Assembly (NCBI GenBank): GCA_027031765.1
Contig: JALVPN010000063.1
Location: 1 to 5,740, forward strand
DNA length: 5,740 bases
Source of the DNA: Promethearchaeota archaeon
GTDB lineage: Archaea > Asgardarchaeota > Thorarchaeia > Thorarchaeales > Thorarchaeaceae
Direction: 5' to 3'
The notes beneath the pieces were generated by a model. That model made no database searches and had not been told where the DNA came from. It worked only from the letters and a program-made list of their open reading frames with translations. This document shows positions 1-5,740 of the stretch, one piece after another (the first letter of the stretch is position 1; the number at the start of each line of letters is the position of its first letter). The translations under genes were made by a program, and so were the position numbers.

Positions 1-1
1 G

Positions 2-751
2 TACCTCACTTGTGGTATCATCGGGCTCTCCGTCCTTGCGGTCTCCATCTTCCTGCCGGTCGCCACCGGCCCACACACAGACACCACTCCCCAGCGCATG
101 CCTCGAAACGGGGCACAGGACACCCCACGGGTACCAGTGACAGCTGTCCTGCGCAGAGACGTCCTCGTGATCTGTGCCGCACAGGCTGCGACCTTCTTCC
201 TTTACGGCGCCTACGAGTTCTTTTTCCCACTGCTGTGGTCAGAGGAGCTCGGCGCCCCGGAATGGATGGCCGGCCCGGCCCTCACCCTCCTCACCATCAC
301 ACTGCTCCTCGCCGGCCCGGCATTCGGCAGGGCATCCGACCGCACCGGCCGTGTGCCGTTCATAGTCACGGGCCTGGTATCACTGTGCATCCTTGTAGCC
401 GTGGCCTCCACTGTCCATGACATGCTCGTCCAGTACGTGCTCGTAGTGCCAATCGGTCTCTCGATCGTGGCCACAGACTCGTCCACATCGCCCCTCGTCA
501 CAGAACGGGTCGCCCCGTCCCGACGCGGCACCGCCCTCGGACTCCTCAGCACCGTCATGGACATCGGCCACTCCACCGGCCCCCTGGTCACAGGGCTCCT
601 CCTCGCCCTGGGCGGACACAGCTACTTCTTCGCCTTCGCAGTCGCAGGCCTGTGCCTCCTGCTCGTGCCAGCGCTCGTGCTCACAGTCCTTGGCAGGACG
701 GACGAGTACCGGTATCCCGACGGTACTGCTGCAGACAAGAGTACTGTGTGA
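2..751 (+). CDS. Major facilitator superfamily (MFS) transporter, C-terminal half; 5'-truncated by the window edge
   Basis: The frame of the 98..751 ORF is open back to position 2 (YLTCGIIGLSVLAVSIFLPVATG...), so ATG98 is probably not the true start. There are about 6-7 hydrophobic helices, MFS motif A-like GRASDRTGR at nt 326-352, and the typical late-helix pattern VTERVAPSRRGTALGLLSTVMDIGHSTGPLVTGLL. Stop TGA at 749-751. Substrate cannot be inferred. Confidence 0.9.
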   Translation, partial: YLTCGIIGLSVLAVSIFLPVATGPHTDTTPQRMPRNGAQDTPRVPVTAVLRRDVLVICAAQAATFFLYGAYEFFFPLLWSEELGAPEWMAGPALTLLTITLLLAGPAFGRASDRTGRVPFIVTGLVSLCILVAVASTVHDMLVQYVLVVPIGLSIVATDSSTSPLVTERVAPSRRGTALGLLSTVMDIGHSTGPLVTGLLLALGGHSYFFAFAVAGLCLLLVPALVLTVLGRTDEYRYPDGTAADKSTV

Positions 752-791
752 GTCTTGGGGCATGTCGGCGACCAGTCACACCCCGCAGGTG

Positions 792-2504
792 TCATACGTC
801 GATGATGCCCTGATATCCCGTCCCCTCGACACTGTCCAGCCACTCGTCCACCCCGCGATATGCGTCCCACCGGCCATGGTATGAGTTCCAGTCCTCAATG
901 AATGTCGAGAGCTTCCACCTGCCGTAGAGCGCACCACCCAGCAGGTGCACCTGGGCAGTGGGGCACAGACCCCGTACAGTCCTTGCAAGCCCCGCGGTCT
1001 CGCCATCCGGGACCCGGATCCGGAACATTAACCTGTCCTCCGAGACCTGTTCAACGTGTGTCATGGGGAGGTCTTCGGCAAGGGCGGCCAGCCCGTACGC
1101 CTCATCACCATGCCTGCATACCACGAGTATGTCTTCCGAGAGGCCCGCATGGTGGAGTTCGTAGACGTGCCCTATGACACCACTCTCACGGAACACGTTC
1201 AGCCACTTGCAAATGGTCTCGGTGCGACAGCCGATTGTCTGCCTCAGCTCACGCACCGTTGTCGCACCGCCCTGGAACTCGCACAGCACTCTTGTCCCAA
1301 TACTGTCAATGTACCGTAACGGTGTTGGCGGGTCCGGCAGGTCGAGCAGCGAGGGCTGTGCCCTCCCGTCCTCTACGAGGTGTGCTGTCCGCAGATAGAG
1401 CACTGTCCAGTCGATAGACCACCCGCCGATCCCGGGGACGTAGTGGTGGAATGAGTAGTGTGTCTTCACGCGTTCGCGTGTCATGGCCTGCACGCTGACC
1501 CCTTCACTCTCTGCATGAGCGATGGCACGGTCCACAGCATGGGAGTTGTCCTTGTTGTCGGGTATGGCGAGGGTGGCCATAAGCCCTCCTCCTCCGCTGA
1601 CTATCTCCCGTGACGAGTAGAGGAATGGGCACTTGGCGACCAGGTCACTTGCAGACACGGTGCTGCCCTCAGTGGGCGTGATGAGCAGGTGTCGGACCTG
1701 TACGCTCAGTGCCCGCAACGACAGTCTTTCAAACACTCTGAGCTGGCCCCGGGCAATGAGCCTCTGTAGGAGCCTGCCGACCCAGTTGGTGCTCATCCCT
1801 GTTTCCTGAGCAATGCGTTCCCTTACGGTGCCATTGGAGGCGAGGACTGCTCCCAGTACCCGCACCTCGGAAGTGTTCAGTCGGATGACATAGCCCCTCA
1901 TGTAGTCGGCCAGCAACCGCACCCACTCGTGTACTGACAGTCTGACCCCTGCCCTCGCGAACCGGATCACCATCCCGACGACGCCGTCAATGTACTCCTC
2001 CTCACCCATGGCGTGGAGCTGTCTGAAGATCTCCGGGCCGTCGTATACTGCCCCCGTTGGAGATGGTACCTGCTTGCTCGATGCCCGCCACCGTTGCCTC
2101 CACTCCTCCAGCAGGGGCCCGCCAAGGCACTGCTCCCCGAAGGCACATGCAATGTCGCTGACAACGACCGCATCAACACTGTCTGACGAGAGCATGAGCC
2201 TCAGTGCCTCCCTGTTCAGGAGTGCCCTGACAAGCGGGGCCTCCGTGCCCACAATGAACGGCAGGTGTACGGTGTTCCCATCAATTGCGACCTGTGTGTC
2301 CCAGGCCTCGGGCCAGTCAATGGGCCTTTCACCGTCCACCACGACACTCATCGATGTCAGCTCGTGGGACAGCCCAAAGCGTTCAGAGCTCCCATACACA
2401 CACTCTCGCCACAGCTGCACGAGTGCCTGCCGGGCCTGCTCATCAGCATAGTGACCGCTACTGGTGACCATTGTAGATGCACCTGTCTCATTTATCCTCT
2501 CCAT
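792..2504 (-). CDS. Large multidomain protein, putative transcriptional regulator: N-terminal ~200 aa helical domain + 2x (Lrp/AsnC-like wHTH + ferredoxin-like/RAM-like domain)
   Basis: 570 aa open frame; 559 aa from ATG2471, which has an AGGTG ribosome-binding-like motif 8 nt upstream (+ strand 2480-2484) and is the more likely start. wHTH-like segment 1, aa ~209-268: LNTSEVRVLGAVLASNGTVRERIAQETGMSTNWVGRLLQRLIARGQLRVFERLSLRAL. wHTH-like segment 2, aa ~399-455: IDSIGTRVLCEFQGGATTVRELRQTIGCRTETICKWLNVFRESGVIGHVYELHHAGL. Each is followed by an alternating beta/alpha segment and an aromatic motif (FHHYVPGIGGWSIDW; FIEDWNSYHGRW). The CDS is well supported; the product call is pattern-based. Confidence 0.7.
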   Translation of the reverse strand: MERINETGASTMVTSSGHYADEQARQALVQLWRECVYGSSERFGLSHELTSMSVVVDGERPIDWPEAWDTQVAIDGNTVHLPFIVGTEAPLVRALLNREALRLMLSSDSVDAVVVSDIACAFGEQCLGGPLLEEWRQRWRASSKQVPSPTGAVYDGPEIFRQLHAMGEEEYIDGVVGMVIRFARAGVRLSVHEWVRLLADYMRGYVIRLNTSEVRVLGAVLASNGTVRERIAQETGMSTNWVGRLLQRLIARGQLRVFERLSLRALSVQVRHLLITPTEGSTVSASDLVAKCPFLYSSREIVSGGGGLMATLAIPDNKDNSHAVDRAIAHAESEGVSVQAMTRERVKTHYSFHHYVPGIGGWSIDWTVLYLRTAHLVEDGRAQPSLLDLPDPPTPLRYIDSIGTRVLCEFQGGATTVRELRQTIGCRTETICKWLNVFRESGVIGHVYELHHAGLSEDILVVCRHGDEAYGLAALAEDLPMTHVEQVSEDRLMFRIRVPDGETAGLARTVRGLCPTAQVHLLGGALYGRWKLSTFIEDWNSYHGRWDAYRGVDEWLDSVEGTGYQGIIDV

Positions 2505-3201
2505 GTTCTTGGGCCTTCCAGATCCGTGTCATCTCAAGTACCGCGTTGCCAAGCTTGGTAATCCTCACCTTCTTGGTGTTCCCTACCTTCTCGGTCTCGA
2601 CATATCCCCAGTCATGAAGCGTCGAAACATGGTCTGATGTCGCTGACATCCCGAGGCGTACCGTCTTCGCGAGCCTTCCAATCGATGGGCACCACTCGTA
2701 GTTTCCCCGCTCGTCCTTCAAAGAACTGAGCGATTCGAGCACTCTCTTCTTCGGCGGGCTCAGCTGTTCCCTTGTTATGGGGAACACATCGACCACATCG
2801 ATGGCGTGACCTTTCCCGTCCTCCTTCACAAGGTGTATCACCGACTTGGTAAAGGCTGCTGCAGCATAGAGTGCTGCGCTCATGATGCGTGTCCCAAGTG
2901 ACGGGTTGAACGCAAACTCGACCTCCTCGTCATTGTCCTGTCCTTCCTGCTCCAACATGTATGTGTTGACGGTCTTCACCGCTTTGAACAGCACATCGTC
3001 AAATCTCCACGGTTCGACCTGCACTATTTCAATGGGCATGTGCCCCTTCTCCAGTATCTCGTCCCTGATCCTCTCTGCATCGTTGTGTGTCTCTCTCGTG
3101 CACATGATCACAAGCGCATCGGCCCCTCGTCTGTTCATTACGAAAGCAATCCTGCCCTGCTCGTTCCGACCCAAGGTGGCAATCATCACTTTCATGGGCA
3201 C
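2488..3201 (-). CDS. csa3: Csa3-family CRISPR-associated CARF + winged-helix transcriptional regulator
   Basis: N-terminal CARF strand-1 motif MKVMIATLG; CARF motif-II-like strand FAFNPSLGTRIMS (aa 96-108; from memory Sulfolobus Csa3 has DLTMGMRM); C-terminal wHTH LSPPKKRVLESL...SIGRLAKTVRLGMSATSDHVSTLHDWGYVETEKVGNTKKVRITKLGNAVL. The size (235-237 aa) and CRISPR-proximal location fit. Start is GTG3201 (GGAG 5 nt upstream) or ATG3195. The stop lies 17 nt inside the maximal downstream ORF, or 16 nt before ATG2471, which suggests an operon. Confidence 0.8.
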   Translation of the reverse strand: MPMKVMIATLGRNEQGRIAFVMNRRGADALVIMCTRETHNDAERIRDEILEKGHMPIEIVQVEPWRFDDVLFKAVKTVNTYMLEQEGQDNDEEVEFAFNPSLGTRIMSAALYAAAAFTKSVIHLVKEDGKGHAIDVVDVFPITREQLSPPKKRVLESLSSLKDERGNYEWCPSIGRLAKTVRLGMSATSDHVSTLHDWGYVETEKVGNTKKVRITKLGNAVLEMTRIWKAQEHGEDK

Positions 3202-3244
3202 GCATTCTCCGCCAGTCCTGTCCCGGTGTATGTGATGTCCCGCC

Positions 3245-3250
3245 TATAAA
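3245..3250 (-). promoter_or_regulatory. Putative archaeal TATA box (TTTATA) for the csa3-like operon
   Basis: The minus strand reads GAGTTTATAGG, matching archaeal TTTAWA. It lies ~45 nt upstream of the csa3-like start and is a rare AT-rich patch in a GC-rich intergenic region. Confidence 0.5.
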
Positions 3251-3462
3251 CTCGCGCTGCGGCCCTGCGGTCGTAGTATTCTGGCGGGCGTGGCACACCC
3301 CGGCCTCACCTCTGGGTACCACGACGCACCGGATGCACGGCTCTCCTATGAACAGGTTTCCGCGACTGCTGTCCCCAACAGCGTGCAGCCGCAACAACCC
3401 CTCTCCTGGGCCCCCTGCCGGCCCCCTAGGCCACCCGGCGGCAAGCGCGTCGTCGTGACTAC

Positions 3463-3468
3463 ATTAAT
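3463..3468 (+). promoter_or_regulatory. Possible TATA-like element (ATTAAT) for the plus-strand CARF gene
   Basis: AT-rich hexamer 42 nt before ATG3511, mirroring the spacing on the csa3 side. It is an imperfect consensus with no clear BRE. Confidence 0.25.
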
Positions 3469-3510
3469 CTCACTGGTGTTGCCGTGCTCCCGACAGGTGT
3501 ACATCAGTCC

Positions 3511-4398
3511 ATGACCCACCTTCGGGATGTGGGCCCGTCAGATGGCAGGACCCGGTACAGAGTGCTCATCGGGTCTGGCGCTGCGGTGTCACAGGGCACA
3601 ACGGAGTACCGCTACCCCGCGGTCGCGCCACGGAGCTCTCAGGCCCTGTCCTCTACAGCTGCCATAGCAGAGCTCCTTGGCCCCTTCGACTCGCTCGTGG
3701 TCTTCACGTCTGGCTGCACACCACATGTCCTGCAGGAGGCCGACGCAGCACGGCTTGCAGGCCACATCCGTGACTGGTCTGTCATCAGGACCAGCCCCGT
3801 ACACGGTCCTTCTCCACTCGTGGACGTCCGCAAGACCATCAGTGCTCTCGAAGACATGGTGACCCCTGACAGGCACCTGCAAGTTGTGGTCGACCTGACC
3901 GGCACTGACGGATATATGACACTTGTCCTCATCGCAGCACTGTCGTTCATGGCCGCCCGCGCTCTCGCCTCCATCGAGCGTGTGGTCCACGCCGTGCCCG
4001 CCAGGACGCCGGGCCAGGCCCTCATCTCTGACATGACCGACACCGCCCTCCTCCTCGAGTGGGTCCTCTGTACCACTGCCCTCTCCTCCCCCAGCCCCGT
4101 TCACCGGCTCGCATCCCTGTTCCGCCGTTTCGCTGACCAGCTCTCATTCTCTCTACCGTCCAGCCTCCGCCTGTCCCACATCGCAGACACCCTCGACCAT
4201 CTCGCAACCCAGTGGCACCCCTCTCATACCACCCAGCCCACACCAGACACTGACACACTTCTCACACTCCTCACTCACGCACGGACGGACGTGGGCCCCG
4301 AAACACCCCTCTCACTCGTCATCGCACATCTCATTGACTCTCTACAACATGACCCATCACCAGCACGACCGGAGGATGACCACCAGTGCAGCAAATGA
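3511..4398 (+). CDS. Divergent Csx1/TM1812 (DxTHG)-family CARF-domain protein lacking a recognisable HEPN effector domain; possibly degenerate
   Basis: 295 aa from ATG3511 (AGGTG at 3495-3499); 304 aa from GTG3484. The order of motifs matches TM1812/Csx1-type CARF domains: RVLIGSG..TTEYRY..STAAIAELLGPFDSLVVFTS..VVVDLTGTDGYMTLVLIAALSF..IERVVHA..GQALISDMTDTALLLEW. The canonical DxTHG position reads DLTGTDG (nt 3892-3912). No RxxxxH motif is seen, and the C-terminal ~100 aa are H/T/P/L/S-rich. Confidence 0.65.
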   Translation: MTHLRDVGPSDGRTRYRVLIGSGAAVSQGTTEYRYPAVAPRSSQALSSTAAIAELLGPFDSLVVFTSGCTPHVLQEADAARLAGHIRDWSVIRTSPVHGPSPLVDVRKTISALEDMVTPDRHLQVVVDLTGTDGYMTLVLIAALSFMAARALASIERVVHAVPARTPGQALISDMTDTALLLEWVLCTTALSSPSPVHRLASLFRRFADQLSFSLPSSLRLSHIADTLDHLATQWHPSHTTQPTPDTDTLLTLLTHARTDVGPETPLSLVIAHLIDSLQHDPSPARPEDDHQCSK

Positions 4399-4485
4399 CC
4401 AGTGCCACAGCCCACAAGGTGACAGCCCAAAGTACGCCGCATCATGGCAGCTCTCCAGACTGCCGCCAGCAGACACACCACCACC

Positions 4486-4534
4486 TCCCACAGTCGCCCC
4501 ATGTCCCGCAGCCCATGATATGTCCCACAGTCCC
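4486..4534. repeat. Degenerate 18-19 bp tandem repeat, core TCCCRCAGYC
   Basis: TCCCACAGTC at 4486, TCCCGCAGCC at 4504 and TCCCACAGTC at 4523 (spacing 18 and 19). Confidence 0.45.
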
Positions 4535-4543
4535 GCCTCTGGG

Positions 4544-4614
4544 CCCGTAGTACGCCTTTGGATTCGTAGTACGCCCTTGAACCCGTAGTACGCCCTTGAA
4601 CCCGTAGTACGCCC
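4544..4614. repeat. 19-bp tandem repeat, ~3.7 copies, with palindromic core CGTA-G-TACG
   Basis: CCCGTAGTACGCCTTTGGA (4544-4562), TTCGTAGTACGCCCTTGAA (4563-4581), CCCGTAGTACGCCCTTGAA (4582-4600), CCCGTAGTACGCCC (4601-4614). CGTAGTACGCC is invariant in all four copies. Confidence 0.95.
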
Positions 4615-4743
4615 GTGCTGTTTCTTCTACGTCTGTGCGCCCATACAACACATGTCGATAGCGATAGCGTACACTTGGCCTGACGAGCCGGAAGACCCGC
4701 CGTGGTGACCGGCCCGTCGATGACGCTCACACGTCAACCTAGC

Positions 4744-4790
4744 GGGCCAGCTCCGGCTGGCCCTACACCTTCTTTTTTTCCCCTTTTCCT
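4744..4790 (+). terminator. Putative plus-strand terminator: 8-bp GC hairpin followed by a T-rich tract
   Basis: GGGCCAGC (4744-4751), loop TCCG, GCTGGCCC (4756-4763) form a perfect stem. A 23-nt pure pyrimidine run follows at 4768-4790, containing T7 (4773-4779) and T4 (4784-4787). Oligo-T tracts are established archaeal termination signals. Confidence 0.6.
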
Positions 4791-4874
4791 GCGGTGCAGT
4801 TCCGATCTGGCCCCACCGTGGTGCCCACGACACCGCCATGGTGTCCATGTCATCCAGTCATGACTCTGTGCCCT

Positions 4875-5740
4875 GTTTCAACCCTAGTTCTAGTCTGATT
4901 GCAACGGGTCTGTCAGGTCAATGTAACCGACCCTCTGGCCAGTTTCAACCCTAGTTCTAGTCTGATTGCAACGTCGTTCATGAGCTCAAGCCTTAACTTC
5001 ACCCGTCACGGGTTTCAACCCTAGTTCTAGTCTGATTGCAACGATTCAGGGGGACTTTGAAGGCCTGCTCCGGAAACTGTTTCAACCCTAGTTCTAGTCT
5101 GATTGCAACGGGCCGGATGGGTGATGTAGAGTTCACTTTTTACCTTCGTTTCAACCCTAGTTCTAGTCTGATTGCAACAGGAACAATGATAACGATAGTG
5201 GTGGATCGACTACTGTGTTTCAACCCTAGTTCTAGTCTGATTGCAACAAGAGGAGGGAGTTACAGCTACGGAATCTGGCACCGTTCGTTTCAACCCTAGT
5301 TCTAGTCTGATTGCAACTGGTCGCCTAGCCAGCCACCACCGACCGCCGGGGGGAGTTTCAACCCTAGTTCTAGTCTGATTGCAACAGGCTACTATGTAGT
5401 AGCCTACAGGGCCGACACCGGTGTTTCAACCCTAGTTCTAGTCTGATTGCAACCTGAACATTGTCACGGTGGACGGCAACGTCTGTCTCGGCTTCAACCC
5501 TAGTTCTAGTCTGATTGCAACACTGAACCAGTTAAGCTGCTCGGGTTTAACCCGACTACGTTTCAACCCTAGTTCTAGTCTGATTGCAACTGACACGGGT
5601 CCCGTTGGGGGAGTCCGTGACGAGGAGGGTGTTTCAACCCTAGTTCTAGTCTGATTGCAACCCACGGGTGGAACGCGATATTCCGTGAGGAAATACTGTT
5701 TCAACCCTAGTTCTAGTCTGATTGCAACCCACGGGTGGAA
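4875..5740 (-). CRISPR. CRISPR array: 13 repeats of 31 bp, 12 complete spacers (36-40 bp) plus a partial 13th; continues past the window edge
   Basis: Plus-strand repeat GTTTCAACCCTAGTTCTAGTCTGATTGCAAC starts at 4875, 4942, 5012, 5079, 5148, 5217, 5287, 5355, 5423, 5491 (variant GCTTC...), 5560, 5631 and 5698. Spacer lengths are 36,39,36,38,38,39,37,37,37,38,40,36. The reverse complement GTTGCAATCAGACTAGAACTAGGGTTGAAAC ends in the usual ..TTGAAAC handle and resembles weakly structured archaeal repeats linked to type I-A/I-B/III systems, so minus-strand transcription is inferred. The array is certain; the orientation is about 0.75. Confidence 0.98.

Follow-up and report, generated by a model that had tools for sequence, protein, structure and literature searches.

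Profile and fold comparisons show the 295-aa protein described here to be the counterpart of a Csx1 that ends after the HTH domain: it retains the CARF core together with the middle domain of Csx1 but has no HEPN nuclease. Alignment with long relatives indicates that the canonical cA4 pocket is dismantled, with the L-G and Tyr of motif I and the Arg and aromatic residue of motif II all replaced. As the pocket is both dismantled and unconserved, we tentatively favour a reading, held at a little short of even confidence, in which the protein is a non-catalytic CARF-HTH dimer that acts as a regulator or pseudo-sensor via protein contacts in a csa3-linked module. Type III CRISPR signalling is usually portrayed as consisting of effector-fused sensors and signal-clearing ring nucleases. 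If the favoured reading is true, an intact sensor with neither effector nor canonical pocket would represent a third kind of type III part, a pseudo-sensor or adaptor.

A Csx1-type CARF-HTH protein without a HEPN domain

The window, that is, the whole stretch of DNA analysed, is the entire 5,740-nt contig C63, and its features are collected in Table 1. The genome to which this contig belongs measures 2.95 Mb and is 95% complete. The 295-aa protein is also encoded on a 9281-bp contig. As the preliminary description of this locus had stated, the target frame is uninterrupted and is preceded by a ribosome-binding-site-like AGGTG. Its G+C content by codon position (0.67/0.51/0.70) is like that of the neighbouring genes. 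The 3' end of the frame and the spacer that follows (4001-4500) have a GC skew of -0.43 (C>>G) together with a positive AT skew, in keeping with which the tail region of the protein is rich in Pro, Thr and His.

Table 1 Features of the window (positions 1-5,740)
Feature	Position	Strand	Basis
MFS transporter gene, cut	2-751	+	ORF/annotation
570-aa multi-wHTH protein, 3' of csa3, in conserved module	792..2504	-	weak HTH matches only
Csa3-like CARF + winged-helix regulator, 237 aa, divergent	2488..3201	-	PADLOC CARF3 5.7e-19, CasR 2.4e-13; TIGR01884 6e-7
TACATTAATC, A/T-rich, possible archaeal TATA box, ATG 42-51 nt further on	3460..3469	+	inferred from sequence
Shine-Dalgarno-like AGGTG, ATG 11 nt further on	3495..3499	+	sequence; function inferred
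Gene of the 295-aa HEPN-less CARF2-HTH protein, stop included	3511..4398	+	intact ORF; orthologue E 2e-23
CARF domain, residues ~13-175	3547..4035	+	AF2 secondary structure; CARF structural alignments
LIGSG string, residues 19-23, at/near motif I position	3565..3579	+	sequence, family alignment
Motif II, DLTGTDG, residues 128-134, replacing D-I-T-x-G-[FY]-R	3892..3912	+	family alignment
Helical 'HTH' domain, Csx1 type, residues 176-281, acidic	4036..4353	+	five helices (AF2); 8y75 alignment
C-terminal tail, disordered, residues 282-295	4354..4395	+	pLDDT ~40
CRISPR array, 13 repeats of 31 nt, past contig end	4875..5740	- (probable transcription)	repeat detection

In line with the CARF assignment of the preliminary description, the AlphaFold model built on the family alignment (pLDDT 80.8, pTM 0.77) has a CARF fold at residues 13-175, followed by five helices at 176-281 and a disordered tail. 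Its best Foldseek match is 8Y75, the CARF-HTH fragment of Marinitoga Csx1-Crn2 (E 2.4e-8); VIA-align places model residues 14-283 on chain residues 1-304 over 255 residues with Z 15.9, and the family profile matches 8Y75 by sequence at 1e-11. Helices 176-281, which align up to residue 304 of 8Y75, correspond to the middle HTH domain of the Csx1 family, and residues 13-182 of the model can be superposed on the CARF domains of Can2, Csm6, Card1, Cad1, Csa3 and Crn1 with Z of about 8-10.

With PADLOC, the target matched the models for Csx1 (9.4e-6), CARF+HEPN (2.8e-4, profile positions 16-242 of 412) and CARF2 CARF_HEPN (4e-3), and its orthologue scored 4.5e-12; CARF clade names used here follow PADLOC model names and general usage. 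No Pfam family was matched at E<=1, including Cas_APE2256, and no cas family in NCBIfam; the curated cut-offs of TIGR02221, TIGR02549 and Pfam Csx1_CARF were not reached, and a single-sequence search of the PDB gave no match. The relationship to Csx1 is thus visible only to PADLOC and to profile and fold methods. The ESM Atlas pointed to clusters of ~264-314 aa labelled 'MJ1674_2nd', and MJ1674 is not mentioned in the papers searched. A search of BFVD for a viral origin or an anti-CRISPR relative found nothing at E<=0.001.

The protein ends at residue 295, whereas the HEPN helix of its long relatives, RNxYAH, lies near residue 395. The preliminary description had held that both the RxxxxH motif and a HEPN domain are absent. 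The first part does not hold literally, as R-x4-H occurs twice, at R93-H98 in the CARF domain and at R286-H291 in the disordered tail, but neither string lies within a HEPN helix and the second part stands. Full-length relatives match nothing in 4200-4900, in any frame, beyond the ORF, in agreement with the earlier statement that no HEPN continuation follows downstream, and their C-terminal halves have no counterpart after the stop codon or on any other contig of the genome. The target is therefore neither a frameshifted nor a split gene, and a separately encoded HEPN, which we had considered, is ruled out on the same grounds. In the absence of the HEPN domain the protein cannot cut RNA. Because HEPN and the canonical motifs I and II are lacking and the curated cut-offs are not reached, we refer to it as a Csx1-derived CARF-HTH protein and not as Csx1.

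No wHTH family in Pfam or NCBIfam matches the C-terminal domain, in which we had looked for a winged helix. The helical domain has a pI of 5.6, with 5 Lys+Arg per 106 residues, and in structure it comes closest to the HTH domain of Csx1; such acidity would speak against DNA binding.

Long relatives and a single orthologue

A phmmer search of 1.84e9 representatives returned two relatives, a 323-aa protein (29% identity) and a 582-aa protein matched over the first 242 residues. The former is an orthologue, intact and in the same synteny, encoded in the MAG Candidatus Thorarchaeota archaeon A361 (G004), which places the source of the target among the Asgard archaea. Apart from this orthologue, the target is closest in sequence to Thorarchaeotal CARF-HEPN-CARF or TM1812-type proteins of 570-620 aa (hereafter long forms; 20-27% identity), with whose N-terminal ~290 residues it aligns end to end, Y33, A51, D128, T130, W184 and L200 being invariant. 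The long forms match the PADLOC CARF2 CARF_HEPN_CARF models at e-84 to e-91, TIGR02221 with up to 82 bits (cut-off 76) and the DxTHG model, which bears out the proposed Csx1/TM1812-type CARF lineage. Of the TIGR02221, TIGR02549 and DxTHG profiles suggested earlier for comparison, TIGR02221 and DxTHG match the long relatives, while the target itself falls below the cut-offs.

The two short forms have in common the blocks AAIAEL-GPFD (GPFD at residues 57-60 of the target), VVD-x-TG-x-D, AALS[FY] in helix alpha4, SIERV, a Trp and the first HTH helices. No further short form was found among 86 family genomes, 400 phylum genomes, JGI metagenome contigs and the 1.84e9 representatives, nor among the matches listed when 5.8e9 protein clusters were searched in three ways, two of them on the best 8000 candidates. 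Two other short frames, from further Asgard genomes, were discarded as candidates: that in G038 is a gene cut by the contig end, and that in G219 covers a CARF-HEPN gene except for its N-terminus.

The canonical ligand pocket is dismantled and differs from one short form to the other

In Marinitoga Csx1-Crn2, cA4 is contacted by motif I LGKG (K12, Y15), motif II TxGxR, E59 and Y164; activation by cA4 needs Y15, R132, K12, E59 and Y164, and R132, which enters the cA4 ring, is essential (PMC11317161). The counterparts of K12, E59 and Y164 are already variable among the Thorarchaeotal long forms. By contrast, all eight long forms aligned retain [LI]-G, the Tyr after it and the motif T-x-[GAC]-[FY]-R, their Tyr and Arg being the counterparts of Y15 and R132.

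The corresponding residues are GSGAAVS..Q and TGTDG in the target, and SFEDDVA..R and TGADK in the orthologue. L-G, Tyr and the aromatic residue of motif II are lost in both, and the aromatic position is occupied in both by Asp (D133 in the target). The motif II Arg, present in 8/8 long forms, is G134 in the target and Lys in the orthologue, and the Tyr of the V-x-Y strand is His and Ser, respectively. The orthologue has no Gly in motif I. What remains is the D-x-T core: D128 and T130 are invariant across the family, and the two short forms agree at T130, G131 and D133.

The reported rewriting of DxTHG as DLTGTDG was found as described. The LIGSG string, which had been taken for the N-terminal motif, is likewise present, but it is offset by three residues from the FLGxG motif I of relatives, whose L-G aligns with G23-A24 and whose conserved Tyr aligns with Q28, and it is thus probably not a retained motif I. 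Among the full-length Thorarchaeotal relatives, the position of the DxTHG His holds H, F, P or S (DITFG, DITPG, DITSG; G004 long form at L010:10309-12003), while the Arg two residues on is invariant. Loss of the His alone therefore means little, and T-x-G-x-R is the better diagnostic for the Thorarchaeotal CARF2 clade.

A ligand site under selection, whether old or new, should be conserved. The motif I loop has 1 of 11 residues common to the two short forms, while their core and likely interface helices are conserved, which weakens a ligand role, "not conserved" here meaning one comparison of two short-form sequences. This bears on the cOA sponge or ring nuclease proposed in the preliminary description, which is disfavoured because pocket residues of all long relatives are lost and those replacing them differ in target and orthologue; we regard a regulator or pseudo-sensor as more probable than a canonical cA4 sponge or ring nuclease. 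In a broader form of the idea, a CARF-HTH dimer would bind cyclic oligoadenylate, maybe of another ring size, through a remodelled pocket, and would sequester or slowly cleave it. Such a cOA sink, which we consider rather unlikely, is compatible with the CARF fold and the retained motif II D-x-T core, and S22 closes strand beta1 as in Crn1-type enzymes. Against it, the ring-inserting Arg/Lys is Gly here and is flanked by D133, and the Crn1-type Ser-plus-Lys pair is not common to both short forms, as the target has S22 but no Lys or Arg in motif II and the orthologue has Lys in motif II but Phe aligned with S22. The lack of a Cas_APE2256 match in Pfam points the same way.

Some CARF families bind cOA through other residues, so that a remodelled, working pocket is conceivable here. 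It would speak against the preferred, non-catalytic reading, and the agreement of the two short forms at T130, G131 and D133 may be taken in that sense.

Short forms evolve fast but appear constrained

In the tree, the short forms group together as sisters (support 100/99). Their stem measures 1.71 and their tips 1.1-1.4, against tips of 0.3-0.8 in the long forms, and they evolve ~2x as fast as the latter. Between the target genome and G004, the short form is 29% identical, while the neighbouring Csa3-like and multi-wHTH proteins are 55.5% and 43% identical, again indicating that the short form evolves fast. These rates would also fit relaxed selection. The short-form pair gives a pN of 0.50 and a pS of 0.74. 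Synonymous sites are saturated and non-synonymous sites are not, so that dN/dS is unusable and only the comparison pN < pS can be used. The ~300 codons are open in both genes, with no frame breaks. These data, from one sequence pair, argue for a constrained protein and not a pseudogene.

The opposite view is that the gene is a functionless relic, a truncated duplicate drifting to loss whose frame is open by chance in G+C-rich DNA. It draws on the longest branches of the tree, the rarity of the short form (2 of the 86 family genomes and 2 of the 400 phylum genomes), the loss of the ligand residues and the composition of the window, which is 63% G+C and rich in long chance ORFs. Set against this are two lineages that, at 29% identity, align end to end without frameshifts, a pN well under the saturated pS, conserved core and interface blocks, a confident AlphaFold model and codon-position G+C as in real genes, and we regard a relic as quite improbable. 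The decaying effector of the preliminary description is unlikely for the same reasons, its orthologue being intact at this divergence. That description had named, as an outcome that would overturn it, close relatives with an intact CARF-HEPN while this copy evolves neutrally: the long relatives do carry an intact CARF-HEPN, but pN < saturated pS, in the one pair compared, argues against neutral evolution.

Genomic context and type III signalling

The gene divergent from the target encodes a Csa3-like regulator, as had been proposed, and is followed by the multi-wHTH gene. The counterpart of the latter in G004 is a syntenic 594-aa frame (L010:8147-9928), and a paralogue lies beside a second csa3 in the target genome (G000:C139:12043-13665). 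In every pair seen, two in this genome and one in G004, a multi-wHTH protein of ~540-590 aa (25-43% identity) follows the Csa3-like gene, and csa3 plus multi-wHTH looks like a conserved, undescribed regulator pair of Thorarchaeota CRISPR loci. The sequence CCTATAAACT at 3243-3252, which reads TTTATAGG on the minus strand, lies ~45 nt upstream of the csa3 start; by its sequence it is a plausible archaeal TATA box of csa3, mirrored by TACATTAATC before the target. A search for intergenic operators found no repeat common to the target and G004 loci, and Rfam gave no match in the window.

Synteny with csa3, multi-wHTH and array is conserved between the target and G004, where the order is array, SAVED-only gene and short form, then the divergent csa3, multi-wHTH, a full-length CARF-HEPN-CARF gene, a Can2/Card1-like CARF nuclease and a Cas10d-like gene. 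In our window the MFS transporter gene occupies the position of the CARF2 long form of G004. In other Thorarchaeota the long form itself is divergent from csa3, so that the short form occupies the ancestral Csx1 slot. The SAVED-only protein of G004 (348 aa, L010:4926-5969) has no effector domain and lies between short form and array, so that G004 has a pair of adjacent sensors that both lack an effector. In the target genome, SAVED frames related to it are found on C83.

The 31-nt repeat of the array also ends contig C139 (G000:C139:31085-31922), where it is accompanied by a leader rich in A/T, a tandem repeat of 30 nt and cmr6-cmr1, and its reverse complement ends in GTTGAAAC. From the leader side on C139 and this repeat end, the array is most likely read on the minus strand of the window. 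C63 most likely joins C139 through the array, and thereby the cmr (III-B) operon; if the two are joined, the array is transcribed towards the target gene. Cmr2 of the C139 operon has an intact GGDD and lacks the N-terminal HD domain. A second GGDD Cas10 locus, on C69, includes a CARF-HEPN RNase of the CARF1 clade, in line with the earlier suggestion that such an RNase is encoded elsewhere in the genome.

Directly upstream of cmr1, a 150-aa ORF (G000:C139:24294-24746; L020:1013-1462) begins VLITSIG, in the manner of a CARF2 protein. Its match to the N-terminus of the G004 long form is weak (E 0.008 in a small database), it has no PADLOC match, and it may be a second, still shorter CARF stump.

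Some of this context would suit the cOA sink, which would be induced through the neighbouring Csa3-like regulator as negative feedback on the type III-B signal. The array-adjacent Cmr2 has GGDD, the CARF1-HEPN RNase on C69 would need switching off, and neither Crn1 or Crn2 ring nucleases nor Csx3 was found in the 95%-complete genome, while most active Cas10 loci are accompanied by ring nucleases (PMC12669027). For Csx3, the negative result counts for less, as it comes from a search without a working positive control.

The preliminary description had further suggested a dominant-negative partner of Csx1: the stump would heterodimerise with a full-length CARF2 Csx1 via CARF/HTH interfaces and block the composite HEPN site. 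Csx1 activity requires a HEPN dimer (PMC11317161), the interface helices are kept, and a full-length CARF-HEPN-CARF gene is found ~3 kb away from the short form of G004. In the target genome, however, no CARF2 long form was found by tblastn, the family profile or the PADLOC model, so that the proposed partner is missing at 95% completeness; the only CARF-HEPN protein found is of the CARF1 clade, and at 20-27% identity to long forms an exact heterodimer fit is doubtful. We judge this the least probable of the explanations considered. A weak match on C186 (E 0.002) was rejected as compositional noise with an internal stop.

Proposed role and comparison with known systems

The target is a HEPN-less offshoot of the Thorarchaeotal CARF2 (Csx1/TM1812) CARF-HTH-HEPN-CARF family, and the reading we prefer is that of a non-catalytic regulator or pseudo-sensor. 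The CARF-HTH fragment of Marinitoga Csx1-Crn2 is folded and dimeric by itself (PMC11317161), which makes a stable dimer plausible for the target, and its CARF-HTH portion would form a dimer as that fragment does. The dismantled pocket would render it insensitive to ligand, and protein contacts, not catalysis, would carry a regulatory role. It would act within a conserved module of Csa3-like regulator, multi-wHTH protein and CRISPR array, near a putatively cOA-producing type III-B system, with a control region probably common to target and csa3. A more specific version, which is possible but which we hold with less assurance, is a ligand-blind "pseudo-CARF" that has lost output enzyme and messenger pocket while selection maintains it as a subunit, structural or regulatory, of a type III circuit built around Csa3. 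If true, it would be a pseudo-receptor in the cOA signalling of Asgard archaea.

Marinitoga Csx1-Crn2 (PDB 8Y6Z, 8Y7G) resembles the target in its CARF plus middle HTH fold and its type III CRISPR context, and its motif II D-x-T, PFD and Trp after beta6 are kept. Unlike it, the target lacks both HEPN and the Crn2/second CARF, and has lost the motif I L-G/Tyr and the motif II Arg. The Thorarchaeotal CARF-HEPN-CARF proteins (PADLOC PDLC01840/01839) are also encoded divergently from a Csa3-like gene, but carry the RNxYAH HEPN helix, a C-terminal CARF and the pocket motifs, and the short forms are a separate clade. Crn1 enzymes (Sso2081, Sis0455, Sis0811) are effector-less CARF proteins of type III loci with a similar fold (Z 7.7-9.2); they belong to another CARF clade, their Ser/Lys pair is unshared, and their C-terminal domain is absent or a wHTH, whereas that of the target is a Csx1 HTH. 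Csa3 likewise combines CARF with a helical C-terminal domain and has no enzyme domain, but the helical domain of the target is acidic and of Csx1 type, with no winged helix detected. The G004 orthologue agrees with the target in family, synteny and domain losses and differs in the Lys at the motif II Arg position, the SAVED-only gene before the array and the full-length Csx1 nearby.

Effector-less CARF2 proteins are an already catalogued category (PADLOC "CARF2--CARF" models). What the present analysis adds is a comparison of pocket residues with those of eight long forms, a comparison of evolutionary rates between the short form and its neighbours, the probable connection of the array to a cmr operon, and the finding that this genome shows no CARF2 partner. 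If the favoured reading is true, it would also caution against labelling every effector-less CARF protein as a sponge or ring nuclease. The evidence comes from two uncultured Thorarchaeota genomes, and its narrow yield is a well-defined protein suited to simple assays of binding and cleavage rather than a finding of broad reach.

Repeats flanking the array

The 476 bp between the target stop and the array contain a 19-nt tandem repeat (4544-4614; 3.7 copies, 88% matches, unit CCCGTAGTACGCCCTTGAA), probably on the trailer side of the array. Look-alikes elsewhere in the genome are single and scattered only, and the repeat could be a protein-binding site or a remnant. At the contig end, the last two spacers (5631-5740) start with the same 12 nt (CCACGGGTGGAA), which may stem from duplication of a spacer or from misassembly where the contig breaks off.
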